From assembly GCA_945906935.1 (NCBI GenBank), contig CAMDSO010000001.1, positions 67,596-131,595 of the forward strand: 64,000 bases of DNA. The letters run 5' to 3'. Origin of the DNA: Bordetella parapertussis. GTDB lineage: Bacteria > Pseudomonadota > Gammaproteobacteria > Burkholderiales > SG8-41. Shown here one piece after another: positions 1-63,990 of this stretch (positions are counted from its first letter, which is position 1; each line of letters begins with the position of its first letter). The notes under the pieces were generated by a model. The model did not search any database, was not told where the DNA came from, and saw nothing but the letters and a program-made list of their open reading frames with translations. Position numbers and translations under genes: made by a program.

Positions 1-1195
<1,195 letters not shown>

Positions 1196-1314
1196 CCGTG
1201 CGCGTCTGCCAGGACCCCCAACGTATTGCCGTCAAACTACTGGAATTATGGGATAATTGCAAGCCGCGAGCACCCGTTTTTCCATCCTTTCATTGCCCAA
1301 TTTCGTCAGCCTTC

Positions 1315-44343: not shown

Positions 44344-44489
44344 GACATTCCCTTTGATTAACGCACGCCCTCCGCGTACGGATTGATCGCACGAGAAAAT
44401 GCATAGGGAATTGATTCGGATCGCCACTGGCACCTGAACACCGCATCCCCGCAGCATTTCCTCACCTGTGGTTCGAGGCCGGTCTACGG

Positions 44490-44690
44490 GCTGGCGAGAT
44501 TTGACGCGCCGCCTTCCCGGGCTTTGCAGGCCCAGTGGCTATGTGGCGCGCCCACGCTCGATCACCGTTGCGGGGGCAGCACAAGAATAGGCGGCAAAAC
44601 CCGGATCAAGATCCGCATTTCACCCGCCGCACTTGTTTCCCGATTATCCCTTGCCGAGGAATTCGGCATGGGCACCTGGAACCTTGTCAC
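44490..44690 (-). promoter_or_regulatory. Cobalamin (B12) riboswitch
   Basis: The minus strand contains ...aggtgcc...GGGAtaatcGGGAAacaagtgcggcGGGTGAAAtgc...GCTGCCCCCGCAACGGTGA...AGCCACTGGGcctgcaaagCCCGGGAAGGC... These are the conserved blocks of RF00174-type elements. It lies in the 5' leader of the btuB-like gene. Confidence 0.85.
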
Positions 44691-44917
44691 CGCCCAACTG
44701 CATTGGGCAACGACCGCCGCAGTCTAACCGAAGCGGCTGCAACGCGGTTGCCGCATATCAAATGAATCGCCGGAAAAGCTGTCGGCCGAACGCACCAACA
44801 GCGTCGCAGATTTACGACACTGAGGCGAGTTTCCACCGCCTGGATCGGCACGAAGTGGTGGCTTACTCGGGTCGCGAGTTATAATATCAAAACACACTCA
44901 ATAGATTTCGTTACATA

Positions 44918-45508: not shown

Positions 45509-45690
45509 TAATCCCCTGCGGTGTTCGTCAGAGCCTTTAATTCTTTGAACCGATAATTTGCTAACTGGTTGCGGACCTCAGCGGTGCTGTTGTGAACTTC
45601 CCTCGCGGAAGAGCCTGATGCGCCCGGAAAGCGACCCCTTGAACCTTCGGTTCAGGAAGCGGGCTCAACGGCATCTGCGGGGGACCTCAT
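45509..45690 (+). ncRNA. ssrS: 6S RNA
   Basis: It occupies the conserved position 3' of zapA. The 5' arm atcccctgcggtgttcgtcagagcc can pair with the 3' arm ggctcaacggcatctgcgggggac. The segment cccttgaaccttcggttcaggaagc resembles the E. coli ccuugaaccaaggguucaaggg region. The ends are approximate. Confidence 0.8.
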
Positions 45691-46294: not shown

Positions 46295-47290
46295 ATGGCC
46301 ATCCCAAGAACCATCGACACCCACGCCCATTACTTCCCTGAGTCCTATATCAAGCTGATCGCCGAACACGGCAAACGCGTCGGCACTACCGTCACCACCG
46401 ACGACAAGGGCATCACCTTCATCCAGGTCGGCCTGCATCTGCGCACCGGCCCGATCACGCGCCTGTTCATTGATCTCGATGCGCGCATTGCGGACATGGA
46501 CCGGCGCGGCGTCGGCATGCACGCGCTATCGCTAACCCAGCCAATGGTCTACTGGGCCTATGACGAACTGGCCGCCGAGCTGTGCCGCGCGTTTAACGAC
46601 TCGATCAGCGCCGCCCACCTCGCGCATCCCGACCGCTTCATTGGCTTTGCCTGTTTGCCGTTTCAAAATGCGCAGCTCGCCCTCGAAGAAATCGAACGCG
46701 CCGCCAAGCTGCCCGGCGTCAAGGGCGTCTACATGGCCACTGCCGTACGCGACAAGGAACTCTCCGACCCGAGCTTCTTCCCGGTCTACGAGCGCATCGC
46801 CGAACTCGGACTGCCAATCTTCCTGCACCCGATGATGATCAACAACGAGCGCTTGAAGCAGTTCTATCTGATCAACCTCTGCGGCAATCCGTTCGACACC
46901 GCCATCGCCGCCTCGCACCTGATCTTCGGCGGCGTGCTCGACGCCTTCCCGACACTCGAAGTCAGCCTGCCGCACGCCGGCGGTGTGCTGCCGATTCTGC
47001 GCGGCCGTCTCGATCGCGGCTTTCATGTGCGCAGCGAATGCAAAACGATTCCACGCCCGCCCAGCGAATATTTGAAGCGCTTCACCTATGACACCATCAG
47101 CTACAACGAAGACCTGATGGACGATCTGATCAAGCTCGTCGGCATTGATCGCATCATGATGGGCAGCGATTTCTGCTTCGACATCGCCTACGAAGAACCG
47201 GTCAAATTTGTCAACGGCATGAAGTCACTGGACGACGTGCAGCGCGAAAAAATTCTCTGGGGCAACGCGGCGCGTTATCTCAAGCTCTAA
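46295..47290 (+). CDS. Amidohydrolase_2 family protein (ACMSD/gamma-resorcylate decarboxylase-like)
   Basis: It has IDTHAHYFPESY (HxH metal site) and MMGSDFCFD (C-terminal Asp). Confidence 0.82.
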   Translation: MAIPRTIDTHAHYFPESYIKLIAEHGKRVGTTVTTDDKGITFIQVGLHLRTGPITRLFIDLDARIADMDRRGVGMHALSLTQPMVYWAYDELAAELCRAFNDSISAAHLAHPDRFIGFACLPFQNAQLALEEIERAAKLPGVKGVYMATAVRDKELSDPSFFPVYERIAELGLPIFLHPMMINNERLKQFYLINLCGNPFDTAIAASHLIFGGVLDAFPTLEVSLPHAGGVLPILRGRLDRGFHVRSECKTIPRPPSEYLKRFTYDTISYNEDLMDDLIKLVGIDRIMMGSDFCFDIAYEEPVKFVNGMKSLDDVQREKILWGNAARYLKL

Positions 47291-47347: not shown

Positions 47348-48325
47348 TTACGGCGCAGCGAGACCGGCGGCCTTGAGCGCCCTGCCGATATTCGCAATCT
47401 CGGCTTTCATCAGCAAGGTCAGGTCATCCGGTGAACCGGGTGCGGCTTCTATGCCGGCCTGCAGAAACAATGCGTCGACCTCGGCCGACTGCAAGGCGCG
47501 CACGACTTCGCGGTTCAACCGCGTCACGATCGCCGCCGGCGTTTTGGCCGGCGCAAAAAGCGCGTGCAACGATTCCGAGGCGAACCCCGGCACGCCGGAA
47601 TCAGCAATCGTCGGTAACCCCGGCACGATTGCCGACGGCCGCGCGCTGCCGGTGGCGAGCGCCCGCAGACGCCCCGACTTCACATGCGATGCGGCACCGC
47701 TCGGTGTGGCAAAAATCGCCTGCACCTCACCGCTCATTACTGCGGTCATGGCAGGCCCGGTGCCCTTATACGGAATGCGTACGATATTCACACCAGCCAT
47801 GTGATTGAACAAAACCGCAGCAATGAAATTCGAGCTGCCCGTTCCGCCCACCGAGTAATTCATTTCGCCCGGCTTGGCGCGCGCCAGTGCGATCAACTGC
47901 CGCACGTTTTTCACCGGCAATGACGGATGCACCACCAGTAGGGTGGGAGAACGGTCGAGCAGCGTGATCGGCGCAAAATCGCCCACCGGATCGTAATTGA
48001 CTTTTTCCAGCAGGGGACCGATCCAATGTGCGCCGCCAGTCACCAGCAAGGTGTAACCATCGGGCGGTGCTTTCGCGACCAGATCGGCGAGCAGTGCGGT
48101 CGGCCGGTTATCCACCACCACCTGCTGACCCAGCGAAGCAGAAATTACCCGCGCGATGACCCGCGCGGGATAGTCATTGCCCCCACCCGCCGGAGAAGTC
48201 ACCACACGGATGGCTTTGAACGGGTATTCCTGCGCCTGCGAGACGCCTATGCCCGTCCCGCACAGAGCAGACGCCAGCAAGCTGGCGCTGAAATATTCTT
48301 CTAGCTTCGTGGCGTGGCTGCTCAT
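47348..48325 (-). CDS. Bug/TctC family tripartite tricarboxylate transporter substrate-binding protein
   Basis: It has a signal peptide, EYPFKAIRVV and IPYKGTGPAMTAV. Confidence 0.9.
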   Translation of the reverse strand: MSSHATKLEEYFSASLLASALCGTGIGVSQAQEYPFKAIRVVTSPAGGGNDYPARVIARVISASLGQQVVVDNRPTALLADLVAKAPPDGYTLLVTGGAHWIGPLLEKVNYDPVGDFAPITLLDRSPTLLVVHPSLPVKNVRQLIALARAKPGEMNYSVGGTGSSNFIAAVLFNHMAGVNIVRIPYKGTGPAMTAVMSGEVQAIFATPSGAASHVKSGRLRALATGSARPSAIVPGLPTIADSGVPGFASESLHALFAPAKTPAAIVTRLNREVVRALQSAEVDALFLQAGIEAAPGSPDDLTLLMKAEIANIGRALKAAGLAAP

Positions 48326-48343
48326 CGGATTACGCCCACCGCG

Positions 48344-48925
48344 CTATTTCAGCGCCGCCTGCAGCTCCTTAGCACCCACCACGTAACACAGCGTCGGCAG
48401 AATATTTTTGATCGTGAACGTATGGTTTTCGATGGTGTTGCTGGCGCAGGCATCGCCGACCAGAAACACGCGATAACCCATGTCGCTGGCGTGACGCGCA
48501 GTCGCCTCCACCACATAGTTGGTCCACAGCCCGACCAGAATAATCGTGTTGACGTCGGCGTTCTGCAACGCTTGATCGAGATTGGTGGTTAAGAACGGAT
48601 CGACGCAGGTCTTGTTCAGCACCAGCTCGGTCTTCAGCGGCTTGACGCGCGGATCAATCGCCGCCCCCTTGGTACCGATGATGAGCTGGCGCTTCTTGCG
48701 CAAGCCATCCCACAGCGGATTGTCACGCGGCAGATCAAGAAAATCCGCCCGCACCGAAGCGGTGATATGAATCACATTGGCCTTGCGACTGCGCGCGGTT
48801 TTCAGCACCGCAGCCATGTTCTCCATGATGCGGTTTTCCTTCAGCCCGGGGGTGATGTCGACCAGATCCTTTTGCACGTCGAGCAATAGCAAAGCGGTGC
48901 GTTTAGCGTCAATTTTCAGTTTCAT
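48344..48925 (-). CDS. Isochorismatase-family cysteine hydrolase
   Basis: Start chosen at MKLKIDAKRTALLLLDVQKD. It has ILVGLWTNYVVEATARHA, where the usual Cys position needs checking. It is 193 aa. Confidence 0.8.
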   Translation of the reverse strand: MKLKIDAKRTALLLLDVQKDLVDITPGLKENRIMENMAAVLKTARSRKANVIHITASVRADFLDLPRDNPLWDGLRKKRQLIIGTKGAAIDPRVKPLKTELVLNKTCVDPFLTTNLDQALQNADVNTIILVGLWTNYVVEATARHASDMGYRVFLVGDACASNTIENHTFTIKNILPTLCYVVGAKELQAALK

Positions 48926-48972
48926 CAGCGTCCTCTTTCGTCGTCTGTTAAAGCTCGCGCCAGCAGCGCGCC

Positions 48973-49944
48973 CTAGTTGGTTTGTTTGCCCTTCAGGCCG
49001 GCAGCTTCGACCACCCCGCCCCAAGTCGCCAGTTCGCGCCGCAACAGTACGGTGAATTCCTCAGGCGTCGAACCGATCGCCTCGACCGCGATGTCGTTCA
49101 GGCGATCGCGCACCTGCGGCTGTTTTAACGCCTGCAGCAGGGTGCTGTTGAGCTTCATGATGATGGCGCGTGGCGTATCTTTGGCCACCAGCGGTCCGTA
49201 CCAGCCGGCGGTGTTGAATTGATAGCCGCTCTCCGCGATCGTCGGCAGCTCGGGCATGAGCGCCGAACGTTTTTCACCGCCCAGCGCAATAGCGCGCAAA
49301 CGCCCGCCCTTCACCTGCGGCAGTGCCGCCGACAACCCGTTGAACATCATATCGACCTCCCCGGCCAGCAGCGCCGTCATGCCGGGCCCCGCGCCTTTGT
49401 ATGGGACATGCGTGATCTTTACCCCGGCGGTGAGGTTGAAGAGCTCGCCCGCCATATGAATACCAACACCGGTGCCGCCCGACGCGAAGTTGAGTTTGCC
49501 CGGCTGCGCCTTCGCCAGGGCGACGAGTTCCTTGACCGTTTTCGCAGCAACGTTCGGATGGACTAGTAATACATAGGGTGCCGCCGCCGCCAGCGAAACC
49601 GGCGCGAAATCCTTGAGCGTGTCGTAGGGCGTTGAGATATTGATCTGCGGCACGATCACCAGCGGCCCGGAAAACCCCAACAGAACGGTATAGCCGTCGG
49701 GTAATGCCTTGGCCGCCATCTCGGTACCGATCTGCCCGGCGGCACCGGCACGGTTGTCGATAACCATCGGTTGACCCAGTGCCTCCGACCACGCTGGCGC
49801 CAGAATGCGTGCGATGACGTCCACTGGCCCGCTGGCCGATGAGGGCGCAATCACCCGGATTGGTTTGTTCGGATATTGCTGCGCGGCGGCCGGCGCCAGC
49901 GGCAAGAGTGCTACAAGCAGACATGCCAACGGTATGGTTTTCAT
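48973..49944 (-). CDS. Bug/TctC family substrate-binding protein, translationally coupled to cofC
   Basis: It has the signal peptide MKTIPLACLLVALLPLAPAAA, QYPNKPIRVIAP and VPYKGAGPGMTALL. Its start is in an ATGA overlap with the cofC stop, with GGAGG 8 nt upstream. Confidence 0.9.
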   Translation of the reverse strand: MKTIPLACLLVALLPLAPAAAQQYPNKPIRVIAPSSASGPVDVIARILAPAWSEALGQPMVIDNRAGAAGQIGTEMAAKALPDGYTVLLGFSGPLVIVPQINISTPYDTLKDFAPVSLAAAAPYVLLVHPNVAAKTVKELVALAKAQPGKLNFASGGTGVGIHMAGELFNLTAGVKITHVPYKGAGPGMTALLAGEVDMMFNGLSAALPQVKGGRLRAIALGGEKRSALMPELPTIAESGYQFNTAGWYGPLVAKDTPRAIIMKLNSTLLQALKQPQVRDRLNDIAVEAIGSTPEEFTVLLRRELATWGGVVEAAGLKGKQTN

Positions 49945-50612
49945 TTTCCTGCCTCCACTGTTTGACGCACATCAACCGCCATCATTGCGCGCGGAATTCT
50001 AGCATCGGGGTGTGCCCGCCACGCGGCGTAATCCTGCGGCGTATCGAGATCGAAAGCGAGTTCCGGCGGCGCCTCACAAACACTGTGATAACCAGCCTGC
50101 GCAAATGCAGCGAGATGACGCGCACGGCTATCAAGCCCGAAGTGAAACAGTTCCCACGCGCCGGCGGGCATGGCCAGCGCATTGGTGCCGCTACCAGCGC
50201 GATCGGCCGCCAGCACAATGTGTTCTGCCATCGTTGCCTGCGCAGTGAACGCATCCAGCGCCGGCGCCGACAGGCGCGGCAGATCACAAGCCAGCACCAG
50301 CAAGCGCTGCGCGCCGCGCCGCGCCAACGCCTGCGCACCCAGCCTTAACGCGGCATTGAGATCACCGCCAGCCGCCTCCCGCATGGTCAGCGCACCGGCC
50401 GCCTCCGCACAGGCCAGCGCCTCAGCACAAGGGCTGACCACCAAACATTGCGCAAGATCGCCCTGCCACGCCGCGATCACTTCCAGCGTATGCGTCAGCA
50501 AATGATGGTTGAGGGCAGCGCGCGCCGGCGCGTCAAGCACCGCCGCCAGTCTCGACTTGCCGATGGCAATACCGTGCACCGGCAGCAACGTCCACCACGC
50601 CTTTGTCATCAC
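49941..50612 (-). CDS. cofC: 2-phospho-L-lactate (or PEP/3-PG) guanylyltransferase CofC/FbiD
   Basis: Motifs include LLPVHGIAIGKSRLA, LACDLPRL, DRAGSGTNAL and DLDTPQDY. Confidence 0.82.
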   Translation of the reverse strand: MMTKAWWTLLPVHGIAIGKSRLAAVLDAPARAALNHHLLTHTLEVIAAWQGDLAQCLVVSPCAEALACAEAAGALTMREAAGGDLNAALRLGAQALARRGAQRLLVLACDLPRLSAPALDAFTAQATMAEHIVLAADRAGSGTNALAMPAGAWELFHFGLDSRARHLAAFAQAGYHSVCEAPPELAFDLDTPQDYAAWRAHPDARIPRAMMAVDVRQTVEAGK

Positions 50613-51559
50613 CGGCGCTCCGCTGCCAGCCGGCGCACATAGGCGACCAGCGTCGCCGCGAGTCGCGCACTGTACGCGGGGTTGCGCATGATGGTATCGG
50701 TGACCAAGACGCCGCGCCCCATCTTCTCGATGGTCGTTTGCAACTTCGCATCGGCGTCATCGATCACCCAGCCGTCGACCAAGCCGCCGTAGTGGCGCGC
50801 AATGCCGGCGGCACTGGCATCGAGCTTGAGCTCACGCATCATTTTTGCCGCCGGCCCCTTGAGCGCTGCGCCAGCGACGATCGGCGACACCGCGACCACC
50901 GGAAAATCGCGCCGCCGCAACCATGCCCGTATCCCCGGCACAGCCAGTATCGGCGCGACGCTGACAAACGGATTCGATGGACACAACACCAGCCCGCTGA
51001 CGCGACCACTTTGCATCAAGGCCTGCAATGCGGGTGCCGGTCTGGCCGCGCGACTACCGGCAAAACGAAATCCCTGCACACGCGGCCGACAGCGTTCACG
51101 CACAAAATAATCCTGAAACGCGAGCTCGCCTGTTGCCGTGATGACGCGCGTGCGCACCGGCGCGTCGCTCATCGGCAGCAGCGCATGCCGCACACCAAGA
51201 CGCCGCGCCAGCATGGCGGTGACCGCAGACAACGTCGAGCCGGCGCGCAACGCCTCTGTGCGCAGCACATGCACCGCGAGATCGCGGTCGCCGAGATTGA
51301 ACCAGTCGCTGCCGCCGAGTTCTTTCAACGCCGTCATGAACTGCCAGCTTTCATCGCGCCGCCCCCAGCCGGTCTCTGGATTGTTGAGGCCGGCCAGCGT
51401 GTACATCACCGTATCAAGGTCCGGCGAGACATGCAGGCCGAGATGTTCAAAATCATCCCCCGTGTTCACGACGACCGATAATTGCGCCGGCTTCAATACC
51501 GCAGCAAGGCCCACCGCCAGGCGCGCACCGCCCACCCCTCCCGCAAGCGCCACCATCAT
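50609..51559 (-). CDS. cofD: 2-phospho-L-lactate transferase CofD/FbiA
   Basis: Motifs include VALAGGVGGARL, NTGDDFEHLGLHVSPDLDTVMYTLAG and GDRDLAVH. It overlaps neighbours on both sides by 4 nt. Confidence 0.9.
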   Translation of the reverse strand: MMVALAGGVGGARLAVGLAAVLKPAQLSVVVNTGDDFEHLGLHVSPDLDTVMYTLAGLNNPETGWGRRDESWQFMTALKELGGSDWFNLGDRDLAVHVLRTEALRAGSTLSAVTAMLARRLGVRHALLPMSDAPVRTRVITATGELAFQDYFVRERCRPRVQGFRFAGSRAARPAPALQALMQSGRVSGLVLCPSNPFVSVAPILAVPGIRAWLRRRDFPVVAVSPIVAGAALKGPAAKMMRELKLDASAAGIARHYGGLVDGWVIDDADAKLQTTIEKMGRGVLVTDTIMRNPAYSARLAATLVAYVRRLAAERR

Positions 51560-52320
51560 CGGAATAAATCCTCCGCCGCCGGCCGCAACAACTCGCGCGC
51601 CGTGCTCTCGCGCAAGGCATACGGAAAGCCGCGCACCAGCACCGCTGGACAGCCCTCGGCAGCCTGTCCCATCAACAGCGAAGCGGCGGCTGCCAGCTCA
51701 TCCGCCGCCGCGACCTGGGTGACCTGCAAGGCGCGGCCCTCGCGGTCACTCTGCCCGCGCAGATCAACCAGTGCCGGCACACCGGCCACCCCGATCGCGG
51801 TGCCGGTCACGCCCTGACGCCAGGCACGGCCAAAACTATCGTTGATGACAACCCCGATGCGTGCACCGCACAGCGCCTCGATCTGCTGGCGCAAATGGCG
51901 TGCCGACGCGTCGGGATCTTCGGGCAGCAACAGCACGCTGTGTTGCGTCTCGGCGGCGGGCACATTCGACTGATCGATACCGGCGCTGGCCATGATGCAA
52001 CCGAGACGATGTTCGACAATCAACACATTCGGTTTGGCCCGCAACACCGTCAGCGATTCGCGCAGCATGCAATCGACCAGTCGCGCGTCCTTGTGCGTGA
52101 GCGCAGCGAGTTCCAGTGCTCGCGCCGACGGCGTGATGTCGTCGAGACAGAGGAGACGCGCCTCGGCCTTCGAGATGATTTTTTGCGCAATGACCAGTAT
52201 GTCACCCTCGACGGGCGTCAAACCGCCGCGCGTCAGCGCCGCCAGCAACAGAGCGGCGAGATCATCACCGGCCTTGATTTCTGGCAAGCCGTCGAGCGCC
52301 AGCAATCTCATTTCACGCAT
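51556..52320 (-). CDS. cofE: Coenzyme F420-0:L-glutamate ligase CofE
   Basis: Motifs include DGDILVIAQKIISKAE, ASAGIDQSN and INDSFGRAWR. Confidence 0.88.
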   Translation of the reverse strand: MREMRLLALDGLPEIKAGDDLAALLLAALTRGGLTPVEGDILVIAQKIISKAEARLLCLDDITPSARALELAALTHKDARLVDCMLRESLTVLRAKPNVLIVEHRLGCIMASAGIDQSNVPAAETQHSVLLLPEDPDASARHLRQQIEALCGARIGVVINDSFGRAWRQGVTGTAIGVAGVPALVDLRGQSDREGRALQVTQVAAADELAAAASLLMGQAAEGCPAVLVRGFPYALRESTARELLRPAAEDLFR

Positions 52321-52335: not shown

Positions 52336-53028
52336 TCAATCGCGTGGCACGCCGGTGATACGGATGCCGGCACCGGGCACCTTGTAGCGCTGGTTGATTG
52401 CAATCAACACCGAGGTCAAGGCCTCGGCCGCCGCTGAATTGACCAGCGTGCCGGCGTGCCAGCCCTGCATACCGGCGTCGCGCGCCAGCCCGATCACCGT
52501 TTCGCGCGCAGCAATGTCATCGCCACAGACCAGCACGTCGCAATCAACGTCATGTGCGAGATCCTTGAGATGAGCGGCGGAAACGTTTTGAAACGCCGAC
52601 ACCACTTTCACCCCCTCGCCCAAGGCGCGCTGCAAAGCAGCCACCGCCGAACCTGCCGTTGGCAATTGCACCCGGCTGACTTTGGGCGGCACCAAGGGTA
52701 CCGTCACATCAATCAGAATTTTTCCGGCGAGCTGTTCACGCAAAGCGAGGGCGGTCGCCTGCTGTGCAGCAAACGGCACCGCCAGCACGACGATGCCCTG
52801 CGCCGCCGCCTCCATGTTCGAGCCGCCGCGCAATGCACCGCGCGCGCCGAGCAGGGCGTTAAAGGTCTGCGCCGCCTGCTGTGCCTTGTCGGCATCGCGT
52901 GAACCAATGATCACATCATGACCGGCCGCCGCCCAGCGCAGCGCCAGACCGCCGCCCTCGTCTCCGCTGCCACCGATCACGCCAATAGAAATTTTCACCG
53001 TGCTTGTCGCCATCATCTTCCTTGCCAT
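52336..53028 (-). CDS. npdG: NADPH-dependent F420 reductase (Fno/NpdG)
   Basis: The segment ISIGVIGGSGDEGGGLALRWAAAGHDVIIGSRD matches the NpdG N-terminus. It is ~230 aa. Confidence 0.85.
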   Translation of the reverse strand: MARKMMATSTVKISIGVIGGSGDEGGGLALRWAAAGHDVIIGSRDADKAQQAAQTFNALLGARGALRGGSNMEAAAQGIVVLAVPFAAQQATALALREQLAGKILIDVTVPLVPPKVSRVQLPTAGSAVAALQRALGEGVKVVSAFQNVSAAHLKDLAHDVDCDVLVCGDDIAARETVIGLARDAGMQGWHAGTLVNSAAAEALTSVLIAINQRYKVPGAGIRITGVPRD

Positions 53029-53080: not shown

Positions 53081-55444
53081 CTAGGCCGCCGCGGTGAAGC
53101 GACGACGCAGCGGCATCCCTAGCGTCGGCAGCGCGGCCAGGGCGGCGGCCTCGTAGGAGGCTTGCACACGCGCCGCCGCCGGCACACCGTAGAGCGTGGT
53201 GCGCTGCTCAGGTCTGCGGCCGCAGGCACGGATCAGTTCATCCATCGCCTGCGGCGCCATTTCCTGACCGTGCTGGGTGCCGGCGGCGTGTGAAATGGTT
53301 TCGTTCATCAGCGTGCCGCCCAGATCATTGGCGCCGGCCGCCAGACAGGCGGCCACACCGGCCTCACCCATCTTCACCCACGAGACCTGGATGTTGGTCA
53401 GCAACGGGCTGAGCGCCAGTCGCGCCACCGCGTGCATCAACACCGCCTCACGAAACGTCGGCCCCTTGCGCGCGCCGCCGCGCCGGTAGACCGGCGCCTC
53501 CATGTGCACGAAGGGCAGTGGCACCAGTTCGGTAAAGCCCTGCGTTTTTTCCTGCAGCGTACGAATGCGCAGCAAATGCCGCGCCCAATGCCGCGGCGCC
53601 TCAACATGCCCGAACATGATGGTGGCGGTTGAGCGCAAGCCAAGCGCGTGCGCGGTTTGCATGATGTCCAACCATTCCGCGGTGGTGACCTTGCCCGGAC
53701 AAATCCGCGCGCGGATTTCATCATCGAGAATCTCGGCCGCGGTGCCCGGCAGTGTATTGAGTCCGGCTTGCATCAATTGCTGCAGAAAAACGCGCACTGT
53801 CAGGCCCAGGGTCTCTGCACCATGCGCGACTTCCAGCGGCGTAAACGCGTGCACATGCATCTGCGGCGCGGCGCGCTTGACCGCACGCACGATCTCAAGA
53901 TAAGTGTCGCCAGTGTAATCGGGGTGTATGCCACCCTGCATGCAGACTTCGGTAGCGCCGCGCGCCCACGCCTCATCGACGCGGCGTTCGATTTCGCCCA
54001 GCGGCAAATCATAGGGTGTGCCGCGCAACGCAGCGGCATGTGTGCCCTTGGAAAAAGCACAGAAGGTGCAACGATAGGTGCAGATATTGGTGTAGTTGAT
54101 ATTGCGATTGACCACATAGCGCACGGTGTCGCCGACCGTTGCATGGCGCAGCGCGTCGGCTTCCGCGCAAACAAAATGAAACGCATCGCCGCGACTGGCG
54201 AAGAGACTTTCGATCTCAGCCTCGGCGAGCGTCGCACCGTCGCGTGCACGCGCCACAATTTCACGCAGCGCGGGTGCGACCCCGCCGCCATGCGTGAGCG
54301 CCGGTGGTGCGACCACCAGCCCCGGTGACCACACGCCTTCGCGCGCATAACCTTCAGCGTCGCTGGCGCGCAGCACAGCAGTGGCAATCGCCGGCGCGTG
54401 CCACTGCACGGCCGCACGGCAATAGGCGGGATAACTGGGCAGACGCTCCTGCAGCAGCTTGCCGCGTGCTGCCGTAATAACACGCAAGCGTGCAAGCGCC
54501 GGCCACGGCGCTTCCGGATTGACGTGATCCGGCGTGACCGGCGAAATGCCGCCCCAATCGTTGATGCCGGCGTCGATCAATTCACCGCAATCATCACCGC
54601 TCAAATTAGGCGGTGCCTGAATGTTCATCTGCGCCCCGAGCAACAGACGCGCCACCGCGATGGTCCACAACAATTCCTCACGCGGCGCATCGGCCACCGC
54701 CGCCATGCGGGTGCCGGCTTTGGCGCGAAAGTTCTGGACAATGACTTCCTGTACATGGCCATACTGCGCGTGCACTTCGCGTATGGCCAGCAGGGTCTCA
54801 ATCCGTTCGGCGCGCGTCTCACCGATGCCGATCAACAGCCCCGTGGTAAACGGCACGCTCAATTCACCCGCCATGCGTAAGGTCTCAAGTCGTAGTGCCG
54901 GCTGTTTATCCGGCGAGCCGAAGTGCGGGCCGCCACGTTCGCACAAACGCCCGGCCATGCTCTCCAGCATCAAACCCTGCGACGCCGATACCGCACGCAG
55001 GCGCGCGATATCGTGCCGCGACATCACGCCGGGATTCACATGCGGCAGCAAACCGGTTTCCTCGCGCACCAGCGCACACATCGCAACCAGATAATCGATG
55101 GTGTTCGCGTAGCCGAGTGCGGCGAGTTCATCGCGGGCGGCTTTGTAACGCCGCTCGGGCTTGTCACCCAGCGTAAAGAGCGCCTCGTGGCAGCCCGCCT
55201 CGCGACCCGCGCGGGCCACTGCCAACACCTCGTCGGCGGTCAAATAAGCCTGGCGCCCGGGCTGCGGTGCGATTGCAAAAGTGCAGTAGTGACAAGAGTC
55301 GCGACACAGCCGCGTCAGCGGAATAAACACCTTGCGTGAATACGAAACGACGGCGCCGTGATTAGCGTCACGCAGCGCCGCCGCCCGCGGCATCAGATCG
55401 GCGGCCCGCGCGTCGATATAACCTGCGATGTCAGCTTCGCTCAA
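53081..55444 (-). CDS. fbiC: Bifunctional FO synthase FbiC (CofG-CofH fusion; 7,8-didemethyl-8-hydroxy-5-deazariboflavin synthase)
   Basis: It has two radical-SAM CxxxCxxC sites, CRDSCHYC and CTYRCTFC. It is 787 aa. Confidence 0.92.
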   Translation of the reverse strand: MSEADIAGYIDARAADLMPRAAALRDANHGAVVSYSRKVFIPLTRLCRDSCHYCTFAIAPQPGRQAYLTADEVLAVARAGREAGCHEALFTLGDKPERRYKAARDELAALGYANTIDYLVAMCALVREETGLLPHVNPGVMSRHDIARLRAVSASQGLMLESMAGRLCERGGPHFGSPDKQPALRLETLRMAGELSVPFTTGLLIGIGETRAERIETLLAIREVHAQYGHVQEVIVQNFRAKAGTRMAAVADAPREELLWTIAVARLLLGAQMNIQAPPNLSGDDCGELIDAGINDWGGISPVTPDHVNPEAPWPALARLRVITAARGKLLQERLPSYPAYCRAAVQWHAPAIATAVLRASDAEGYAREGVWSPGLVVAPPALTHGGGVAPALREIVARARDGATLAEAEIESLFASRGDAFHFVCAEADALRHATVGDTVRYVVNRNINYTNICTYRCTFCAFSKGTHAAALRGTPYDLPLGEIERRVDEAWARGATEVCMQGGIHPDYTGDTYLEIVRAVKRAAPQMHVHAFTPLEVAHGAETLGLTVRVFLQQLMQAGLNTLPGTAAEILDDEIRARICPGKVTTAEWLDIMQTAHALGLRSTATIMFGHVEAPRHWARHLLRIRTLQEKTQGFTELVPLPFVHMEAPVYRRGGARKGPTFREAVLMHAVARLALSPLLTNIQVSWVKMGEAGVAACLAAGANDLGGTLMNETISHAAGTQHGQEMAPQAMDELIRACGRRPEQRTTLYGVPAAARVQASYEAAALAALPTLGMPLRRRFTAAA

Positions 55445-55509: not shown

Positions 55510-56469
55510 TTACTGTTTGACACCGGTCGCCTTAACCACATCGGCCCACGTTTTCATGTCCTGCTCGAGCATCTGCTGCATCGCTTCGGGCGAGAGCTTC
55601 ATCGCTTCGGCGGCATTGGCGGCGAAAATTTCACGCGACTTCGGTGCCTCAACCGCTTTGGCAATTTCCGCATTGAGCTGCTCGATGAGATTACGCGGCG
55701 TATTGGCCGGCGCAAAAATCCCGGCGATCACCGCGGCATCTACACCCCGCACGGTTTCACCCAGCGCCGGAATCTCCGGAAACGCCGCAACGCGCTTGTC
55801 TGCGGTGATGCCGATGGCAATCAACCGTTTGCTACGCACGTATTCAATCGCCGCCGGGATCGTGTTGACGATCAGCGACAACTCTCCGGTGAGTAACGAC
55901 ACCGTCGAGGTCGTACCGCCTTTGTAATTGACCATTTCGAGATTGATGCCGGCGCGCATGCGGAATTTCTCTGCGGCCATGTGCGTGACGGTGCCCACAC
56001 CCGAATTACCGCAGGTGATACCCGGATTTTTCTTCGCCAGCGCAATCAGTTCTTTAGCCGACTTCACCCCCAGCGAAGGATGCGCCACCATGATCAGCGG
56101 GGACGTCGAGACTGGCGCCACCGCCATCAAATCACGCTGCGGGTTGTACGAGAGTTTGGAATACAGCGACGGCGTGATGGCATGCGTCGACATATCGGTA
56201 AACAACAGCGTATAGCCATCGGCTGCCGACTTGGCGACGAGTTCGGCCGCAATGGTGGTGCCTGCGCCCGGCCGGTTTTCAACGATCACCTGCTGACCAA
56301 GACTCTTCGTCAATTCCGCCGCCGTGATGCGCGAAAAGGTATCGGTCGCGCCGCCAGTGGCAAACGCCACCACGAGGCGTACCGGCTTGGCCGGATAAGT
56401 CTGCGCCTGCACTGCCGTGCCCAGGGTGGCCGCGACTGCCGCACTCATCAACGCTATCGTCTTATGCAT
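55510..56469 (-). CDS. Bug/TctC family substrate-binding protein
   Basis: It has a signal peptide, TYPAKPVRLVVAF and VNYKGG. Confidence 0.9.
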   Translation of the reverse strand: MHKTIALMSAAVAATLGTAVQAQTYPAKPVRLVVAFATGGATDTFSRITAAELTKSLGQQVIVENRPGAGTTIAAELVAKSAADGYTLLFTDMSTHAITPSLYSKLSYNPQRDLMAVAPVSTSPLIMVAHPSLGVKSAKELIALAKKNPGITCGNSGVGTVTHMAAEKFRMRAGINLEMVNYKGGTTSTVSLLTGELSLIVNTIPAAIEYVRSKRLIAIGITADKRVAAFPEIPALGETVRGVDAAVIAGIFAPANTPRNLIEQLNAEIAKAVEAPKSREIFAANAAEAMKLSPEAMQQMLEQDMKTWADVVKATGVKQ

Positions 56470-56509: not shown

Positions 56510-57463
56510 TTATTGTTTTATAAAAGCCGGCACCACGTCGCGCACAAAGGTTTCCATCTGTTCGACCTGATCGGTACCGGCAATGCGGATGCACAGATCG
56601 GTCACGCCCGCCGCCTCGTAGAGCTTCAGCGTTTCAATCACCTTGGCGACCGGCCCTAACCCCATCAGCCCGCGGTAATTGACACCACCGCCGTAATATT
56701 CGGCCAGAAACTTCGCCGTATCGGCTTCGGCTTTGGCCACATCGTTTTCAATGCGCACCGTCGTATACACGCACATCGGAAAATCAGGCAGCGAACGATT
56801 CTGTTTCAGCAGCGCTTCGTTACACAGTTCGCGCAGCTTGCGGCAATCGTCATCGGTCAGATAAGTGGCGATAATGCCGTCGCCGAGACGCGCAAAGCGG
56901 TCGATCTGCGCCGGGATAAATTCGCCACGATTGCCCGCCGTCATCAGCACGGGAGGGCCAGCCTCATTCCACGGCAGCGGACCGATGGTGTGATCGGTCA
57001 GTTTGAAATCGCTGCCTTGATAGGTCACCGGCTCGCCGCTCCACAACATGCGCCAGACAGTGACATGTTCTTCGAGATCTTTGACACGCCGCTTGTGCAC
57101 GCGGCCGCAGGCCTCCCATTCGCGCTCGATAGCCGGCAACTTCCAGCCGACCCCAAGGCCCAGCACCAGCCGGCCCTGCGAAATCTGATCAATGTTGGCG
57201 AGCGCACCAGCGAGCACCGTCGGCTGACGCAAGGCCGGCAGCAAAATCGCCGTGCCCAAACGTGCACGCTTGGTCATTGCCGCGACATACGCCAGGGTGG
57301 TCAGCGGATCGAGCCGCGGTTTGGCGACGATGGAATCGCCGACCCAGACATCCATGCCTGCTTCATCAGCCATGCGCGCGATGGTCCAGCACTGCTCGAC
57401 CGGCGGACGCCGCGCGGATTGAATCACTACACCCCGATGGGGCAACAACACGCCTAATCTCAT
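56510..57463 (-). CDS. Luciferase-like monooxygenase (LLM) class oxidoreductase, probably F420-dependent
   Basis: It has a TIM-barrel LLM pattern (..LGTAILLPALRQPTVLAGALANIDQISQGRLVLGLGVGW..). It lies next to the F420 biosynthesis genes. Confidence 0.8.
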   Translation of the reverse strand: MRLGVLLPHRGVVIQSARRPPVEQCWTIARMADEAGMDVWVGDSIVAKPRLDPLTTLAYVAAMTKRARLGTAILLPALRQPTVLAGALANIDQISQGRLVLGLGVGWKLPAIEREWEACGRVHKRRVKDLEEHVTVWRMLWSGEPVTYQGSDFKLTDHTIGPLPWNEAGPPVLMTAGNRGEFIPAQIDRFARLGDGIIATYLTDDDCRKLRELCNEALLKQNRSLPDFPMCVYTTVRIENDVAKAEADTAKFLAEYYGGGVNYRGLMGLGPVAKVIETLKLYEAAGVTDLCIRIAGTDQVEQMETFVRDVVPAFIKQ

Positions 57464-57545: not shown

Positions 57546-58769
57546 CTAAACCACGCCATCCGCTTTGAGTTTAGCAATTTCAGCATCGCTCTTCTTCAGC
57601 GACTGGCGCAGGATTTCATCGGTGTGCTGGCCCAGCGCAGGTGGCGGCACCTCATGCTTGATCGGCGTGCCGGAAAAGCGCATCGGACTCGCCACCAGCG
57701 AGACCTTGCCGGCCACCGCATGCGGCAATTCGATTTTCATACCGCGCGCGATCACCTGCGGTTCTTCGAACACCTGTTGCAGATTGTTGATCGGACCGTT
57801 GGCAACGCCCGCGTCGTCAAGTAGCTTGACCCACTCCTTGGTCGTGCGTTTGGCGAACAACGCATTGAGCAGCGCGGTGATTTCGGCGCGGTTCTGTACG
57901 CGCGCCGCATTGGTCGAGAATTTCAGATCGGTCGTGAGCTCCATGCAACCGGCGACTTCGCAAAACTTCTTGAACAGGTTGTCGTTGCCGCAGGCCAGAA
58001 TGATCGCCCCATCGGCGGTATTGAAAGTTTGATACGGCACGATGTTCGGATGCGCATTGCCGATGCGCTCGGGCGACACACCGGTGGCCAGATAATTCAT
58101 GCCCTGATTGGCCAGATACGCCACCGTGGTGTCGAGCAGCGCGACGTCGATCCACTGGCCCTTGCCGGTGACGGCACGATTGGCGAGTGCGGCGCAGATC
58201 GCAATCGTCGCGTACATGCCAGTGGTCAGATCAATGATCGGCACACCGCAACGCTGCGGCCCGCCACCGGGCACGCTATCGGGCTCGCCCGTGATGCTCA
58301 TCATGCCACCCATGCCCTGCGCCATGAAATCGTAGCCGGGACGGTCTTTGTAGGGGCCGGTCTGGCCGAAGCCGGTGACCGAGCAATAAATCAAACCCGG
58401 ATTGATTTTGGCGAGGTCTTCATAACCAAGACCATAACGCGCCAGATCACCGACCTTGTAGTTTTCGAGCAGCACGTCGCACTCCGCGGCGAGCTCGCGC
58501 ACCAGTTGCTGGCCCTCGGGCTTGGTGAGATTGACCGTGATCGAACGCTTGCCACGATTGGCGGCGCAGAAGTACGCCGACTCGCGGGTCTCGTTGCCGT
58601 TCTCGTCTTTCAGAAACGGCGGCGCATACGCGCGCGAATCATCGCCTTTGACTGGGCGCTCAACCTTGATCACATCGGCGCCGAGATCGGCCAGATTCTG
58701 CGCGGCCCACGGAGCGGCCAGCACACGCGACATGTCGAGAACTTTGATATGGGATAACGGGCCAGACAT
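57546..58769 (-). CDS. Family III CoA-transferase (CaiB/BaiF/Frc-like)
   Basis: It has IKVLDMSRVLAAPWAAQNLADLGADVIKVERP and the catalytic Asp region. Confidence 0.9.
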   Translation of the reverse strand: MSGPLSHIKVLDMSRVLAAPWAAQNLADLGADVIKVERPVKGDDSRAYAPPFLKDENGNETRESAYFCAANRGKRSITVNLTKPEGQQLVRELAAECDVLLENYKVGDLARYGLGYEDLAKINPGLIYCSVTGFGQTGPYKDRPGYDFMAQGMGGMMSITGEPDSVPGGGPQRCGVPIIDLTTGMYATIAICAALANRAVTGKGQWIDVALLDTTVAYLANQGMNYLATGVSPERIGNAHPNIVPYQTFNTADGAIILACGNDNLFKKFCEVAGCMELTTDLKFSTNAARVQNRAEITALLNALFAKRTTKEWVKLLDDAGVANGPINNLQQVFEEPQVIARGMKIELPHAVAGKVSLVASPMRFSGTPIKHEVPPPALGQHTDEILRQSLKKSDAEIAKLKADGVV

Positions 58770-58853: not shown

Positions 58854-59636
58854 TTACTTGCCTTTGAAAACAGGCTTGGTTTTGTTGATGAACGCATCGT
58901 AACCGATGCGATAGTCTTCGGTTTTGAAATAGTCGAAGTTGGCGTTGATCTCAACGGCGGTCAACGGCGTCGCCTGCGGCGTCAAGCGGCGGATAAACTG
59001 TTTATGCCAACGCGCCACCAAGGGCGCGCCGTCAGCGATACGCCGCGCGGTTGCATAGGCTTCGTCGATCACCTTGTCGTCGGCTACCACTCGCGTCAGC
59101 AAGCCTTTGGCAAACGCCTCGTCAGCGCGCCACATGCGCCCCTCGATCAAAATCTCCGCGGCAACCGCACGCCCCGCCACCGCGATCAATCCGGCGAGTT
59201 CGCCATAGGCCAATGCAAAGCCGAGGCGGTTGATCGGCACGCCAAGCCGCGCAGACACACCGGCAATGCGCAAATCACAGCAGCACGCCAATTCAAGTCC
59301 GCCGCCGGCGCAAGCACCTTTGATCAAGGCAACGGTCGGATGCCGGCATTCGGCCAGCGCCTTCAAGGCAGTGGCGACGGTTTCAAGATGATAGGTCTTG
59401 CCCTGCTCGACGTTGTTGCGCTGCATGGCAAACTCGGCAATATCAGCACCCGCCGCAAACGCCTCATCCCCGGCGCCGCGCAGCACGATACAACGCAGGC
59501 TGTCATCCGCAGACAATTCATGCATCACGCGCGCGAGCTCGCGCCACATCGCAACGGTTAACGCGTTGAGCTTGGCGGGGTTGTTGATGGCAACGGTGGC
59601 AATGACGCCGTCGCGCGTGAGGTCGATTGAGGACAA
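58854..59636 (-). CDS. Enoyl-CoA hydratase/isomerase (crotonase) family protein
   Basis: Motifs include VLRGAGDEAFAAGADI and GACAGGGLELACCCDLRIA. Confidence 0.9.
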   Translation of the reverse strand: MSSIDLTRDGVIATVAINNPAKLNALTVAMWRELARVMHELSADDSLRCIVLRGAGDEAFAAGADIAEFAMQRNNVEQGKTYHLETVATALKALAECRHPTVALIKGACAGGGLELACCCDLRIAGVSARLGVPINRLGFALAYGELAGLIAVAGRAVAAEILIEGRMWRADEAFAKGLLTRVVADDKVIDEAYATARRIADGAPLVARWHKQFIRRLTPQATPLTAVEINANFDYFKTEDYRIGYDAFINKTKPVFKGK

Positions 59637-59939: not shown

Positions 59940-60761
59940 ATGGGTTTCTACCGTTTCGAAAACTTGAAGTCGTTTCACTTCAATCCCCACCTTTCTTCAA
60001 CCCAAGGCCCCATTATCGAGGGGGAATATATGTATTTCCGGCGCGTCACCAAGCCGGCGGGCGGCAAAGGCCGGCTACACTACCACCCGAATGAATTCAT
60101 GGCCTTTTTGCTTGAAGGAAAAATTAGCGCGGTCGTCGGCAAGGGTCTCAAGAACGTGCGGCCTGGAACCCTGATACACATCCCGTCAAATGCCCGCCAT
60201 CGGTTTATCGCCCGTGAAGACCTGAAATATCTCTACGTTAAGGATCGCACCTGGACCATGATCGGTGCAGCGGCAGATGAAGCGTTGCCGGAACGCGCAC
60301 GTTCGGCAATCGAAGTGGCAAAAGACATCAAGGCTGGTATCTATCCTGGCGGCAAAAAAGCACCCGAAAAATCGCAGGCCATCATCGAGGGCCTCGGCAA
60401 CTGCTTCTATCCGTTAATCGATAAGCTCGATGCCCCTGCCGCCTCAGGACACTGTGAACGCTGGACCGAGGGTGCGAACCTGGCATTCGGCTTTATCGAA
60501 TCGCCGCCCGGCCACAAAACCGCAGAGAAAAAGGCCGCGCATGAAATTTTTGCGTATGTCATCAGCGGCATGCTGGACGCGCAGGTGGGCCGCAAAAAGC
60601 ATCGGGCGAAGGCCGGTGATGTTATCCACATAGCGCGCAATATGTCCTACCACCTCGACGTTTATGGCAGGCACCCGGTGCGTTACGCCGCAGTCCGTTC
60701 CACCGAACGGCTCGAGGCGGCTGTCGCAAAAAACGGCGCCTCAGACAACTGGCGCGGCTGA
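59940..60761 (+). CDS. Bicupin protein (metal-binding cupin)
   Basis: The first cupin has HYHPNE...GTLIHIPSNARH (an HxH..E..H pattern). The second cupin has HEIFAYVISG...GDVIHIARN. Confidence 0.65.
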   Translation: MGFYRFENLKSFHFNPHLSSTQGPIIEGEYMYFRRVTKPAGGKGRLHYHPNEFMAFLLEGKISAVVGKGLKNVRPGTLIHIPSNARHRFIAREDLKYLYVKDRTWTMIGAAADEALPERARSAIEVAKDIKAGIYPGGKKAPEKSQAIIEGLGNCFYPLIDKLDAPAASGHCERWTEGANLAFGFIESPPGHKTAEKKAAHEIFAYVISGMLDAQVGRKKHRAKAGDVIHIARNMSYHLDVYGRHPVRYAAVRSTERLEAAVAKNGASDNWRG

Positions 60762-60777
60762 TCGCGGACGGAATCTC

Positions 60778-61749
60778 ATGAGCCCAGTCGCGTCGTTCTG
60801 CCTCGTCGCCGCACTGCTGCTGCCAGCGGCACTCAGCCATGCTCAAACCATGAGCTATCCGACAAAACCAGTGCGCATCATCGTCGCGACACCGCCCGGC
60901 GGCCCCTACGACGAAACCGCGCGCGCCATCGGCCCGCGCCTTACTGCGATATGGGGTCAGCAGGTAATCGTTGATAACCGGCCAGGCGCGGCCAACATCA
61001 TCGGCGCCACCACCGCCGCAAAATCCCCGCCCGATGGCTATACGTTTTTTCTTGCCAATGTTGCCTCCCAGGCCATCACCCCGGCGTTGCGAAAAAATCT
61101 TCCTTATGACCCGCAGCGCGACTTCGCACCGGTGACACTGATGCTATCCTCGCCCTTGGTCATCGTCGTGCATCCGTCGATGCCCGCAAAAACAATTCGT
61201 GACCTGGTAAATCTGGCCCGCGCCAGACCCGGCAGCCTGAATTACGCCTCGGCGGGTGTTGGCAATTTGCAGCATCTGGCGATGGAAATGCTGCAATCGG
61301 CTGCCGCCATTCGCATGAACCATGTACCCTACAAAGGTTCGGCACACGCTTCGGTGGATCTCATCGCCGGTCACGTCGATTTGATGTTCGCCAACATTGC
61401 CGGTGCCATGGTCCATATCAAGGGTAACCGTATTCGCGCTATCGCCGTTTCGGCGGCGAAGGGCTCCACACTGCTGCCCGATCTACCGGCCGTAGCAACA
61501 ACCTATCCCCAATTTGACGTTACAACATGGATGGCCCTGCTGGCGCCGGCAGGCACACCGCGCGATATCATCAACAAAGTTGGCGCAGACGTGAACCGCG
61601 TGCTCAAGTCATCGGAGATGCAGGAACGCTTTGTCAGTCTTGGCCAGGAAGTGATCGCCGGCCCGCCCGAACAGGTGACCGAATACGCCCGCAGGGATGG
61701 CGCGCGTTACGCGGCGATCATACGAGAAATAAACCTGGCTCCCGAATAA
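60778..61749 (+). CDS. Bug/TctC family substrate-binding protein
   Basis: Start chosen at MSPVASFCLVAALLLPAALSHA (signal peptide). It has SYPTKPVRIIVAT and VPYKGS. Confidence 0.9.
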   Translation: MSPVASFCLVAALLLPAALSHAQTMSYPTKPVRIIVATPPGGPYDETARAIGPRLTAIWGQQVIVDNRPGAANIIGATTAAKSPPDGYTFFLANVASQAITPALRKNLPYDPQRDFAPVTLMLSSPLVIVVHPSMPAKTIRDLVNLARARPGSLNYASAGVGNLQHLAMEMLQSAAAIRMNHVPYKGSAHASVDLIAGHVDLMFANIAGAMVHIKGNRIRAIAVSAAKGSTLLPDLPAVATTYPQFDVTTWMALLAPAGTPRDIINKVGADVNRVLKSSEMQERFVSLGQEVIAGPPEQVTEYARRDGARYAAIIREINLAPE

Positions 61750-62979: not shown

Positions 62980-63990
62980 TCATTCGGCCTGGATCTGGGC
63001 AGCCTTGATGACTTTGGCCCATTTAACCGTTTCGTTTTTCAAAAATTCCCGGAACTCTTCGGGCCCCAGTCCGGCGATGTCATAGCCTTCCTTGACAAGC
63101 TGTTCGCGCAGTTCTGACTTCAGCACCCGGCGCGTGATTTCATCATGGAGCTTAAGGATGATTTCGCGCGGCGTATTCGCCGGCGCCATGATGCCATTCC
63201 AGTTGTTTGATTCAAAACCAGGCACGCCAGCCTCCGACACCGTTGGCACATCCGGTAGCAACGACGAGCGCTGGCGCCCATTGATACCAAGCACCCGTAT
63301 GCGGCCGTTTTTCATGAGTGGAACGGCGAGCGGGATCGAGAACGTTCTCAGGTCGATCTGCCCGGCAAGCATATCGTTGGTTGCCTGCGCCGTCCCCTTG
63401 TAAGGGATGTGATTCATCTTCGTGCCGGCCAGCGTATTGAAGAGCTCGATCGTCAGGTGACCGACGGTGCCGATTCCGGGCGAGCCGTAGGTAAGCTTGC
63501 CGGGCTGGGCTTTGAGCAAGGCGATCAATTCGCGCACCGTTTTCGCCGGCACGCTTGGGTGTATCGCCACAACGCTGGTTGTATACGTGACCAGAATCAC
63601 CGGCTCAAGCTGACGCACAGGGTCATAGGGCATTTTGGCGTGGAGGCTTGGCGCGATCGTCAACGGACCCGGATTGGCGCCGAGCAGGGTATACCCATCG
63701 GGCGCGGCCTTGGCAACCGCTTCAGTACCGAGCATCCCCCCCGCGGCGGGCCGGTTATCAATAACCACCGGCTGACCCCAGGCTTCGCTCAGCTTTTGTC
63801 CGACCATACGCGCATTCAAATCAGTCGGACCGCCGGCCACGAAGGGAACAACGATACGAATTACCTTGCCAGGATAACTTTGTGCACCCGCCACCGCAGG
63901 CAAGAATGCACCAATAAAAAGAAACGACCGTGGCCAGTGGCACATTCCGGTTGCGGTCAGCGATTTCGACCAATTTGCGATTGCCCGCAT
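62980..63990 (-). CDS. Bug/TctC family substrate-binding protein
   Basis: It has SYPGKVIRIVVPF and IPYKGT. The start is uncertain: 63990, or the internal Met at 63945. Confidence 0.85.
   Translation of the reverse strand: MRAIANWSKSLTATGMCHWPRSFLFIGAFLPAVAGAQSYPGKVIRIVVPFVAGGPTDLNARMVGQKLSEAWGQPVVIDNRPAAGGMLGTEAVAKAAPDGYTLLGANPGPLTIAPSLHAKMPYDPVRQLEPVILVTYTTSVVAIHPSVPAKTVRELIALLKAQPGKLTYGSPGIGTVGHLTIELFNTLAGTKMNHIPYKGTAQATNDMLAGQIDLRTFSIPLAVPLMKNGRIRVLGINGRQRSSLLPDVPTVSEAGVPGFESNNWNGIMAPANTPREIILKLHDEITRRVLKSELREQLVKEGYDIAGLGPEEFREFLKNETVKWAKVIKAAQIQAE

Follow-up and report, generated by a model that had tools for sequence, protein, structure and literature searches.

Does a cofactor-biosynthesis gene that shares its last nucleotides with the start of a transport gene also share a function with it, or only a position? 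The question is raised by a stretch of 64,000 nucleotides (hereafter the window; positions 67596-131595 of contig C1) from the metagenome-assembled genome (MAG) of an uncultured member of the Burkholderiales, an assembly of 4.64 Mb in 259 contigs. The minus strand of the window carries a run of 12 same-strand genes (59636 down to 47348), beginning with an enoyl-CoA hydratase gene and ending with a gene for a periplasmic binding protein of the Bug/TctC family, Bug2. Within the run lies a block of genes for the synthesis of cofactor F420, the final gene of which, cofC, overlaps the start of another Bug gene, Bug1; between Bug1 and Bug2 lies a gene of the isochorismatase family (ISO). An initial annotation, made from the nucleotide sequence, had read this arrangement as tying F420 synthesis to the uptake of a carboxylate and to a hydrolase. 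According to a review (PMC8498797), no role is known for F420 in Proteobacteria, and Fno is the sole F420 reductase found in Betaproteobacteria. A link to carboxylate uptake, if true, would thus have pointed either to that role or to the source of the precursor of the F420 side chain. It would also have been new, as the annotation held: our literature search found no paper that meaningfully connects F420 with Bug proteins or with the tripartite tricarboxylate transporters (TTT).

Comparison of the locus across the bacterial family leads us to a different answer. The cofC-Bug1 junction is probably the edge of a block that is present or absent within an otherwise conserved gene backbone, and it would accordingly reflect position and not a shared function. 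Bug1, ISO and a convergent decarboxylase gene just beyond Bug2 most likely serve the uptake and breakdown of an organic acid.

Gene order around cofC and Bug1 across the family

The survey covered 159 genomes from 13 genera of the GTDB family, with gene order mapped at about 60 loci; neighbouring genes were assigned through their resemblance to proteins encoded in the window, and Pfam annotation was added for selected loci. The loci share a backbone consisting of the enoyl-CoA hydratase gene, a CoA-transferase gene, optionally a further Bug gene (Bug0), Bug1, the convergent decarboxylase gene, an EVE gene, zapA, 6S RNA, btuB and a gene for an msbA-like ABC transporter, with the CoA-transferase and hydratase genes forming its upstream edge. 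The zapA-EVE-btuB string was used as a synteny marker throughout the family.

The slot upstream of Bug1 was found in four states: the full series LLM-Bug0-fbiC-npdG-cofE-cofD-cofC, in which LLM denotes an oxidoreductase gene of the luciferase-like monooxygenase class; LLM-(Bug0)-cofE-cofD; LLM alone; and an empty slot. The position of Bug1, between the CoA-transferase gene and the decarboxylase/EVE/zapA genes, is constant in all four. In genomes lacking F420 genes the CoA-transferase gene directly adjoins Bug1, and the position is unchanged in genomes that lack both the F420 genes and ISO. Bug1 is therefore a conserved backbone gene of the locus, against which the right edge of the F420 block abuts. 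Downstream of Bug1 comes a second variable block, either ISO alone or ISO plus Bug2; Bug2 is missing or replaced in many relatives.

In six genera, about 25 genomes in all, cofC and Bug1 are adjacent, and to this extent the linkage pointed out in the initial annotation is indeed conserved among related F420-encoding betaproteobacteria. The longer arrangement cofC-Bug1-ISO-Bug2, together with the convergent decarboxylase gene, is found again in congeners that share 60-95% identity with the window in cofC, and four genera (23 genomes) have ISO orthologues, always within the same backbone. F420-positive genomes of genera g36, g37, g3, g4 and g8 carry LLM-Bug0-fbiC-npdG-cofE-cofD-cofC followed by a Bug1 orthologue, without ISO. 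The idea that the linkage is specific to the Bug-hydrolase pair was dropped because F420-positive genera keep cofC beside Bug1 in the absence of ISO. In one genome (G139), ISO directly follows cofC and Bug1 is absent.

Adjacency to a Bug gene has to be judged against the abundance of such genes. The genome contains about 593 Bug/TctC open reading frames (ORFs), which fill 13.4% of its bases, so that a Bug gene is expected downstream of about one gene in eight and adjacency in a single genome is uninformative. To our knowledge, this family of uncultured Burkholderiales represents the densest Bug expansion; a first look at relatives gave Bug candidate numbers of up to about 1000. Such saturation could by itself place a Bug gene after cofC with no shared history between the two. 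The same Bug1 orthologue, however, follows cofC in six genera, and the adjacency must therefore have been inherited and not repeatedly drawn at random; the synteny maps refute pure chance, to which we give practically no weight.

Inheritance of a position is not the same as functional dependence, and the distribution of the genes was examined for the latter. Of the 159 genomes, 55 carry cofD. Twelve of these 55 have no Bug1-like gene, and 11 of the 23 ISO-bearing genomes have no cofD. Among the 17 ISO-bearing genomes tested for both cofD and cofH, ten have neither; some of these are 91-100% complete, including G126 (100%), G072 (98%) and G140 (95%). Expressed as odds ratios (OR), which as calculated here ignore phylogeny, the association of ISO with cofD is 2.4 (p = 0.06), compared with 109 for LLM and cofD, a pair that serves as an internal positive control for a gene tied to F420.

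Assigning Bug1 orthology by score proved fuzzy (the scores form a continuum of 332-460 bits), and position and a tree were used instead. In a maximum-likelihood tree of 48 orthologues, with four of the genome's own Bug paralogues as outgroup, the Bug1 orthologues form one clade apart from the paralogues, with a Shimodaira-Hasegawa-like approximate likelihood ratio test (SH-aLRT) value of 100. Within this clade, F420-adjacent and F420-less contexts are interleaved, with at least seven changes, six of which are forced by well-supported branches. On these data, co-occurrence of the F420 genes with Bug1 and ISO does not appear to go beyond shared ancestry. The proposed tie of F420 synthesis to carboxylate uptake and a hydrolase is not supported, given the presence of Bug1, ISO and the decarboxylase gene at the same site in F420-less genomes, the 12 cofD-bearing genomes without a Bug1-like gene, and the six to seven or more changes of state on the tree.

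The same distribution bears on a more specific idea, in which Bug1 and Bug2 would supply the F420 side chain by importing lactate, glycerate, glutamate or phosphoenolpyruvate-like acids, one of these compounds being released by ISO. The adjacency and overlap with cofC are consistent with it, as is the nearest solved structure to Bug1, 2dvz (E 1e-64), which we take to be Bordetella BugE crystallised with glutamate. Bug1 and ISO nevertheless persist in genomes without cofC, cofD and cofH, and the F420 clusters of 12 genomes of the family, as well as those of other orders, are without Bug1 and ISO. Bug1 is, moreover, one among about 593 paralogues, and the acids concerned are central metabolites made in the cell, which also counts against a dedicated supply. 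We consider this explanation very improbable.

Several observations weigh against reading the junction as one of position. Most of the 159 genomes are incomplete MAGs, so that single absences are uncertain. Bug1-like genes are associated with cofD (OR 8, p = 2e-8), at a threshold that admits close paralogues and with genus g37 alone supplying 17 of the 43 joint positives. The adjacency of cofC and Bug1 persists across the six genera named by the maps, and at a break in synteny in g37 and g8 the downstream genes change and Bug1 stays with cofC. The F420 block also lies within a tightly spaced run of same-strand genes. Finally, the overlap described below is kept while cofC diverges to 60% identity, and this could reflect selection for co-expression.

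The cofC-Bug1 junction and the F420 block

The features of the locus and of the remainder of the window are collected in Table 1. The identity of CofC was established by its TIGR03552 equivalog score together with the presence of cofD, cofE, npdG and fbiC immediately upstream, and all five F420 proteins score above their NCBIfam cut-offs. The profile scores also bear out the names first given to cofC, Bug1, the isochorismatase-family gene and Bug2.

Table 1. Coordinates (window numbering), strand and supporting matches of the genes, RNA elements and other features discussed in the text
Feature	Position	Strand	Evidence
enoyl-CoA hydratase	58854-59636	-	PF00378, 165 bits
family III CoA-transferase	57546-58769	-	PF02515, 443 bits
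LLM-class oxidoreductase	56510-57463	-	PF00296
Bug0	55510-56469	-	PF03401
fbiC (cofGH)	53081-55444	-	NF006687, 1126 bits, above cut-off
npdG (Fno)	52336-53028	-	TIGR01915, 202 bits, above cut-off
cofE	51556-52320	-	TIGR01916, 283 bits, above cut-off
cofD	50609-51559	-	TIGR01819, 305 bits, above cut-off
cofC (2-phospho-L-lactate guanylyltransferase family)	49941-50612	-	TIGR03552, 115.7 bits (cut-off 105); PF01983
Bug1	48973-49944	-	PF03401, 230 bits (cut-off 27)
ISO (isochorismatase family, 193 aa)	48344-48925 (ATG at 48925)	-	PF00857, 131 bits (cut-off 27)
Bug2	47348-48325	-	PF03401, 191 bits (cut-off 27)
GC-rich hairpin in the gap separating Bug2 from the convergent decarboxylase gene	47307-47339		fold energy
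ACMSD-like Amidohydro_2 gene, convergent to Bug2	46295-47290	+	PF04909, 135 bits
further Bug ORFs	60664-61749; 62980-63990		Bug/TctC survey
6S RNA, adjoining zapA and the EVE gene	45510-45687	+	Rfam
cobalamin riboswitch 5' of btuB-like TonB receptor gene	44460-44694	-	Rfam
TPP riboswitch	1109-1229	-	Rfam

At the junction itself, the cofC stop codon TGA (49943-49941) and the Bug1 start codon ATG (49944-49942) share the tetranucleotide ATGA at 49941-49944, a reading of the sequence in which we concur with the initial annotation. The GGAGG element that it noted before Bug1 is present as well, inside cofC at 49956-49952, with a spacer to the Bug1 start of 7 nt where 8 nt had been given; the gaps of 47 nt between Bug1 and ISO and of 18 nt between ISO and Bug2 were exact. 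The profile match of CofC stops at residue 201 of 223, and the coding sequence of the C-terminal tail of about 22 residues spans the ribosome-binding site of Bug1. The pair thus shows both features by which translational coupling was judged, namely a stop/start overlap and a Shine-Dalgarno sequence within the upstream gene.

Only one subclade has the overlap. It is kept in four congeners (G001, G008, G013 and G024), the cofC genes of which are 60-95% identical, and gaps elsewhere range from 18 to 222 nt. The spacing upstream of Bug1 is -4 nt in five genomes; two others have +18 and +31 nt, and loci with cofD directly before Bug1 have 74-222 nt. At most of the loci that were examined, a GGAGGCAGG motif lies 5' of Bug1, and several of these loci have no cofC. 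From this we infer that the ATGA overlap arose because, in the subclade of the window, the cofC reading frame was extended across the ancestral ribosome-binding site of Bug1. With such an extension, Bug1, ISO and Bug2 would probably be transcribed together with the F420 genes from promoters upstream, in a unit that would stop at the hairpin after Bug2. We read this co-expression as a by-product of position.

A terminator scan of the window returned nine terminator-like sites against a chance expectation of 10.9, none of them in an intergenic gap, and the cofC/Bug1, Bug1/ISO and ISO/Bug2 junctions are no more stably folded than shuffled sequence (z scores of 0.07, 0.10 and 1.37). No terminator is predicted to part cofC from Bug1, and an internal terminator or promoter between the genes was rejected on account of these chance-level, non-intergenic matches and unstructured junctions. 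The first description of the genes as lying on one strand free of terminators therefore holds as far as the hairpin after Bug2. This hairpin has a fold energy of -32.6 kcal/mol (z = -2.6), and 0 of 200 shuffled sequences were as stable; it is likely to be the end of the transcription unit, and a single cofC-Bug1-ISO-Bug2 transcript is likely, as predicted from sequence, in the clade of the window. An Rfam scan of the window found only the cobalamin riboswitch, the TPP riboswitch and 6S RNA, with no regulatory RNA near the junction, and a tRNA search of the window found none.

The F420 genes have a GC content at third codon positions (GC3) of 0.67-0.75, the same as their flanks. A recent horizontal insertion of the block was rejected on this ground; the matching GC3 argues for old residence of the block and against its having lately been transferred to this particular site. 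The one neighbouring gene that tracks the F420 genes is LLM, which leads the block. Its orthologues (at least 73% identity) were found in 45 genomes of the family, 42 of which have cofD. The best NCBIfam matches of the LLM protein are F420-dependent LLM families, with TIGR03619 at the top, at scores below the family cut-offs. Among the genes of this betaproteobacterial lineage, LLM is the prime candidate for one that encodes an F420-dependent enzyme.

Five genomes (loci L034, L038, L039, L040 and L066) have LLM-(Bug0)-cofE-cofD at the site without fbiC or cofC. This variant would be explained if Bug1 took up Fo or F420 from outside the cell as their receptor, the glutamyl tail of F420 bearing carboxylates, and these genomes, with LLM-cofE-cofD-Bug1 in a cluster without fbiC and cofC, made use of salvaged cofactor. 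fbiC is found elsewhere in the genome, however, in all four of the five that were searched, so that these four are not Fo auxotrophs, and cofC was found elsewhere in two; the F420 pathway of these relatives is split between two loci, the other lying on another contig. Bug1 orthologues are also retained in genomes without any F420 enzymes, and we hold a salvage receptor to be highly improbable. Genus g1 has a second type of cluster, cofE-cofD-cofC-fbiC, the cofC of which is about 30% identical.

ISO, the ACMSD-like decarboxylase and a putative organic-acid substrate

If Bug1 belongs to the backbone, its partners are to be sought there. Both Bug1 and Bug2 pass the domain test for the Bug/TctC family, with PF03401 above the gathering score, and Bug1 matches the solved structures of BugE, Bug27, TphC and BugD at E values of 1e-65 to 1e-52. 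Judged by eye, the N-terminus of Bug1 consists of a hydrophobic stretch followed by AAA/QQ (putative signal peptide MKTIPLACLLVALLPLAPAAA/QQ), and that of Bug2 is less typical of an export signal. A search of the genome gave 8-9 matches to TctA, none of them on contig C1, and the two proteins are therefore "orphan" Bugs.

ISO belongs to the isochorismatase-like superfamily, as judged by PF00857, and forms a distinctive subfamily within it. When aligned to 3kl2, 6xix and 6xj4, it retains Asp16 and Lys105, and in place of the nucleophilic cysteine it has Val138, within GLWTNYVVEAT. The cysteine occurs in TNcCVEsT in 3kl2 and in TEvCVqtS in 6xix; 6xj4, otherwise identical to 6xix over the aligned region, bears Ser at that position. 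Val138 is invariant in 13 ISO orthologues, and 14 of 15 distant homologues have the valine within GLWTN[YF]VVEAT or a near variant of it, one open frame having given no motif match. Cys107, two residues past Lys105, is invariant in the subfamily. With valine in place of the nucleophile, the test for an Asp-Lys-Cys triad failed, and the label "cysteine hydrolase" that NCBI gives to the orthologues cannot hold. An isochorismatase of the EntB/PhzD type was likewise rejected, as the matches to such structures reach only 24-28 bits and there are no ent, dhb or phz genes in the neighbourhood.

ISO has homologues, 48-65% identical to it, in Alphaproteobacteria and Rokubacteria/Methylomirabilia as well as in one gammaproteobacterium and one deltaproteobacterium, and the distant loci of the subfamily that we mapped are L131, L133, L135, L136, L137 and L146. 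Hoeflea poritis E7-10, an alphaproteobacterium, is a cultured carrier. At the loci checked in Alpha- and Gammaproteobacteria, ISO adjoins a DctP-type binding protein gene of the tripartite ATP-independent periplasmic (TRAP) transporter family and, in four cases, a family III CoA-transferase gene as well; no Bug or F420 genes flank it there. Six of nine genomes with distant ISO homologues have no cofD. ISO is therefore recurrently accompanied by a carboxylate-binding protein, drawn from the transporter family that each lineage prefers, and by a CoA-transferase. These contexts, together with the replaced nucleophile, also speak against the hydrolase as a partner of F420. Separately, three public MAG records with the Burkholderiales-type locus described here (L112, L113 and L120) are titled Chitinophaga pinensis, uncultured Streptomyces sp. 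and Rhodospirillaceae bacterium and are probably mislabelled.

The alignment of the convergent Amidohydro_2 protein to human ACMSD (4igm; E 2e-49, 171.5 bits) runs over the full length, and the metal-ligand motifs of ACMSD (HxH, H, H, D) and its GR arginine line up. No other gene accompanies Bug1 as constantly as the one for this protein, which adjoins Bug1 in genera with and without F420, and its family-wide conservation is 0.74-0.95 of the self score, as against 0.3-0.6 for cofC. No NCBIfam equivalog matches the protein, and no genes of the kynurenine or nitrobenzoate pathways were found near the decarboxylase gene.

Taken together, these assignments suggest a route in which Bug1 would bind an organic acid in the periplasm and hand it to one of the 8-9 TctA/B carriers shared within the genome, after which the CoA-transferase, the hydratase, ISO and the ACMSD-like decarboxylase may process it. 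The role of F420 in this route is the point at which a competing interpretation has to be weighed. The entire run and the decarboxylase gene could form one pathway for an imported organic acid, with LLM using F420H2, Fno recharging it and F420 being made on demand. In keeping with this, the genes lie on one strand with short gaps and no terminator before the end of Bug2, six genera have the F420 block placed centrally within the backbone operon, and the subclade of the window keeps the ATGA overlap. The top family matches of LLM are F420-dependent, with cofD in 42 of 45 LLM genomes, and a pathway of this kind would fit a cofactor without a known role in Proteobacteria and with Fno as the only reductase in Betaproteobacteria (PMC8498797). 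Bug1, ISO and the decarboxylase gene are intact, however, in many genomes lacking both F420 genes and LLM, so that any F420 step would be dispensable for the backbone genes, and the distant ISO homologues accompany TRAP binding proteins and CoA-transferases with no F420 genes. We therefore regard an F420-dependent pathway of this extent as unlikely. In a variant of it, the F420 block would have been recruited into an organic-acid catabolic operon, and LLM would use F420H2 on a compound delivered by Bug0 or Bug1 that ISO and the decarboxylase process; this we think decidedly unlikely. If true, it would provide the first defined physiological role of F420 in free-living Betaproteobacteria, with synthesis of the cofactor co-induced with the pathway.

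The preferred reading of the junction, as the edge of a variable block, changes what the locus has to offer. The comparative data take away most of the promise that the Bug and hydrolase genes had held for F420, and attention shifts to the LLM gene at the head of the block as the better F420-dependent candidate in the lineage. The Cys-less ISO subfamily is repeatedly paired with binding proteins of TTT or TRAP, two transporter types that are not related to each other, as well as with CoA-transferases of family III. These pairings suggest an organic-acid pathway not yet characterised, for which Hoeflea poritis E7-10 provides a cultured entry point. The association of LLM with F420, the Cys-less hydrolase module and the extreme density of Bug genes are what remains of value.

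Comparison with known systems

It is well known that orphan Bug genes may lie next to genes for enzymes and that Bug genes have expanded in particular lineages (PMC5994714). The proteins described here resemble the orphan Bugs of Bordetella, Cupriavidus and Rhodoplanes in their PF03401 domain, putative signal peptide, lack of an adjacent tctA or tctB, enzyme-gene neighbour and massive lineage-specific expansion (PMC5994714). In Rhodoplanes sp. Z2-YC6860, 434 Bug genes in 8.2 Mb make up more than 6% of the coding sequences, a number that was called unprecedented (PMC5994714); the density here is about twice that (13% of bases, about 593 genes in 4.6 Mb). Bug1 further differs from the published orphan Bugs in being a stable single-copy orthologue, fixed family-wide between the CoA-transferase and the ACMSD-like decarboxylase genes.

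ISO shares the PF00857 fold and the catalytic Asp and Lys with the isochorismatase-like superfamily, which includes biuret hydrolase, CSHase and PncA as well as EntB and PhzD, and by sequence it is nearest to the cysteine-hydrolase-type structures 3kl2 and 6xix. It is set apart from biuret hydrolase, CSHase and PncA as a distinct subfamily by GLWTN[YF]VVEAT and by the cysteine two residues after the lysine. The decarboxylase, for its part, resembles the group of ACMSD, LigW, gamma-resorcylate decarboxylase and IDCase in its full-length alignment to ACMSD and in the metal-ligand and GR arginine motifs, but at 171.5 bits it is not a close relative of the human enzyme.

The F420 block has in common with the proteobacterial F420 clusters of Paraburkholderia rhizoxinica, Oligotropha and Paracoccus a fused FbiC and a single-domain CofE without the nitroreductase domain, as well as Fno as the only F420 reductase found (PMC8498797). 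It differs from them in its setting, lying within a catabolic-looking operon and being led by an LLM oxidoreductase gene and a Bug gene, and in that its last gene overlaps a Bug gene.

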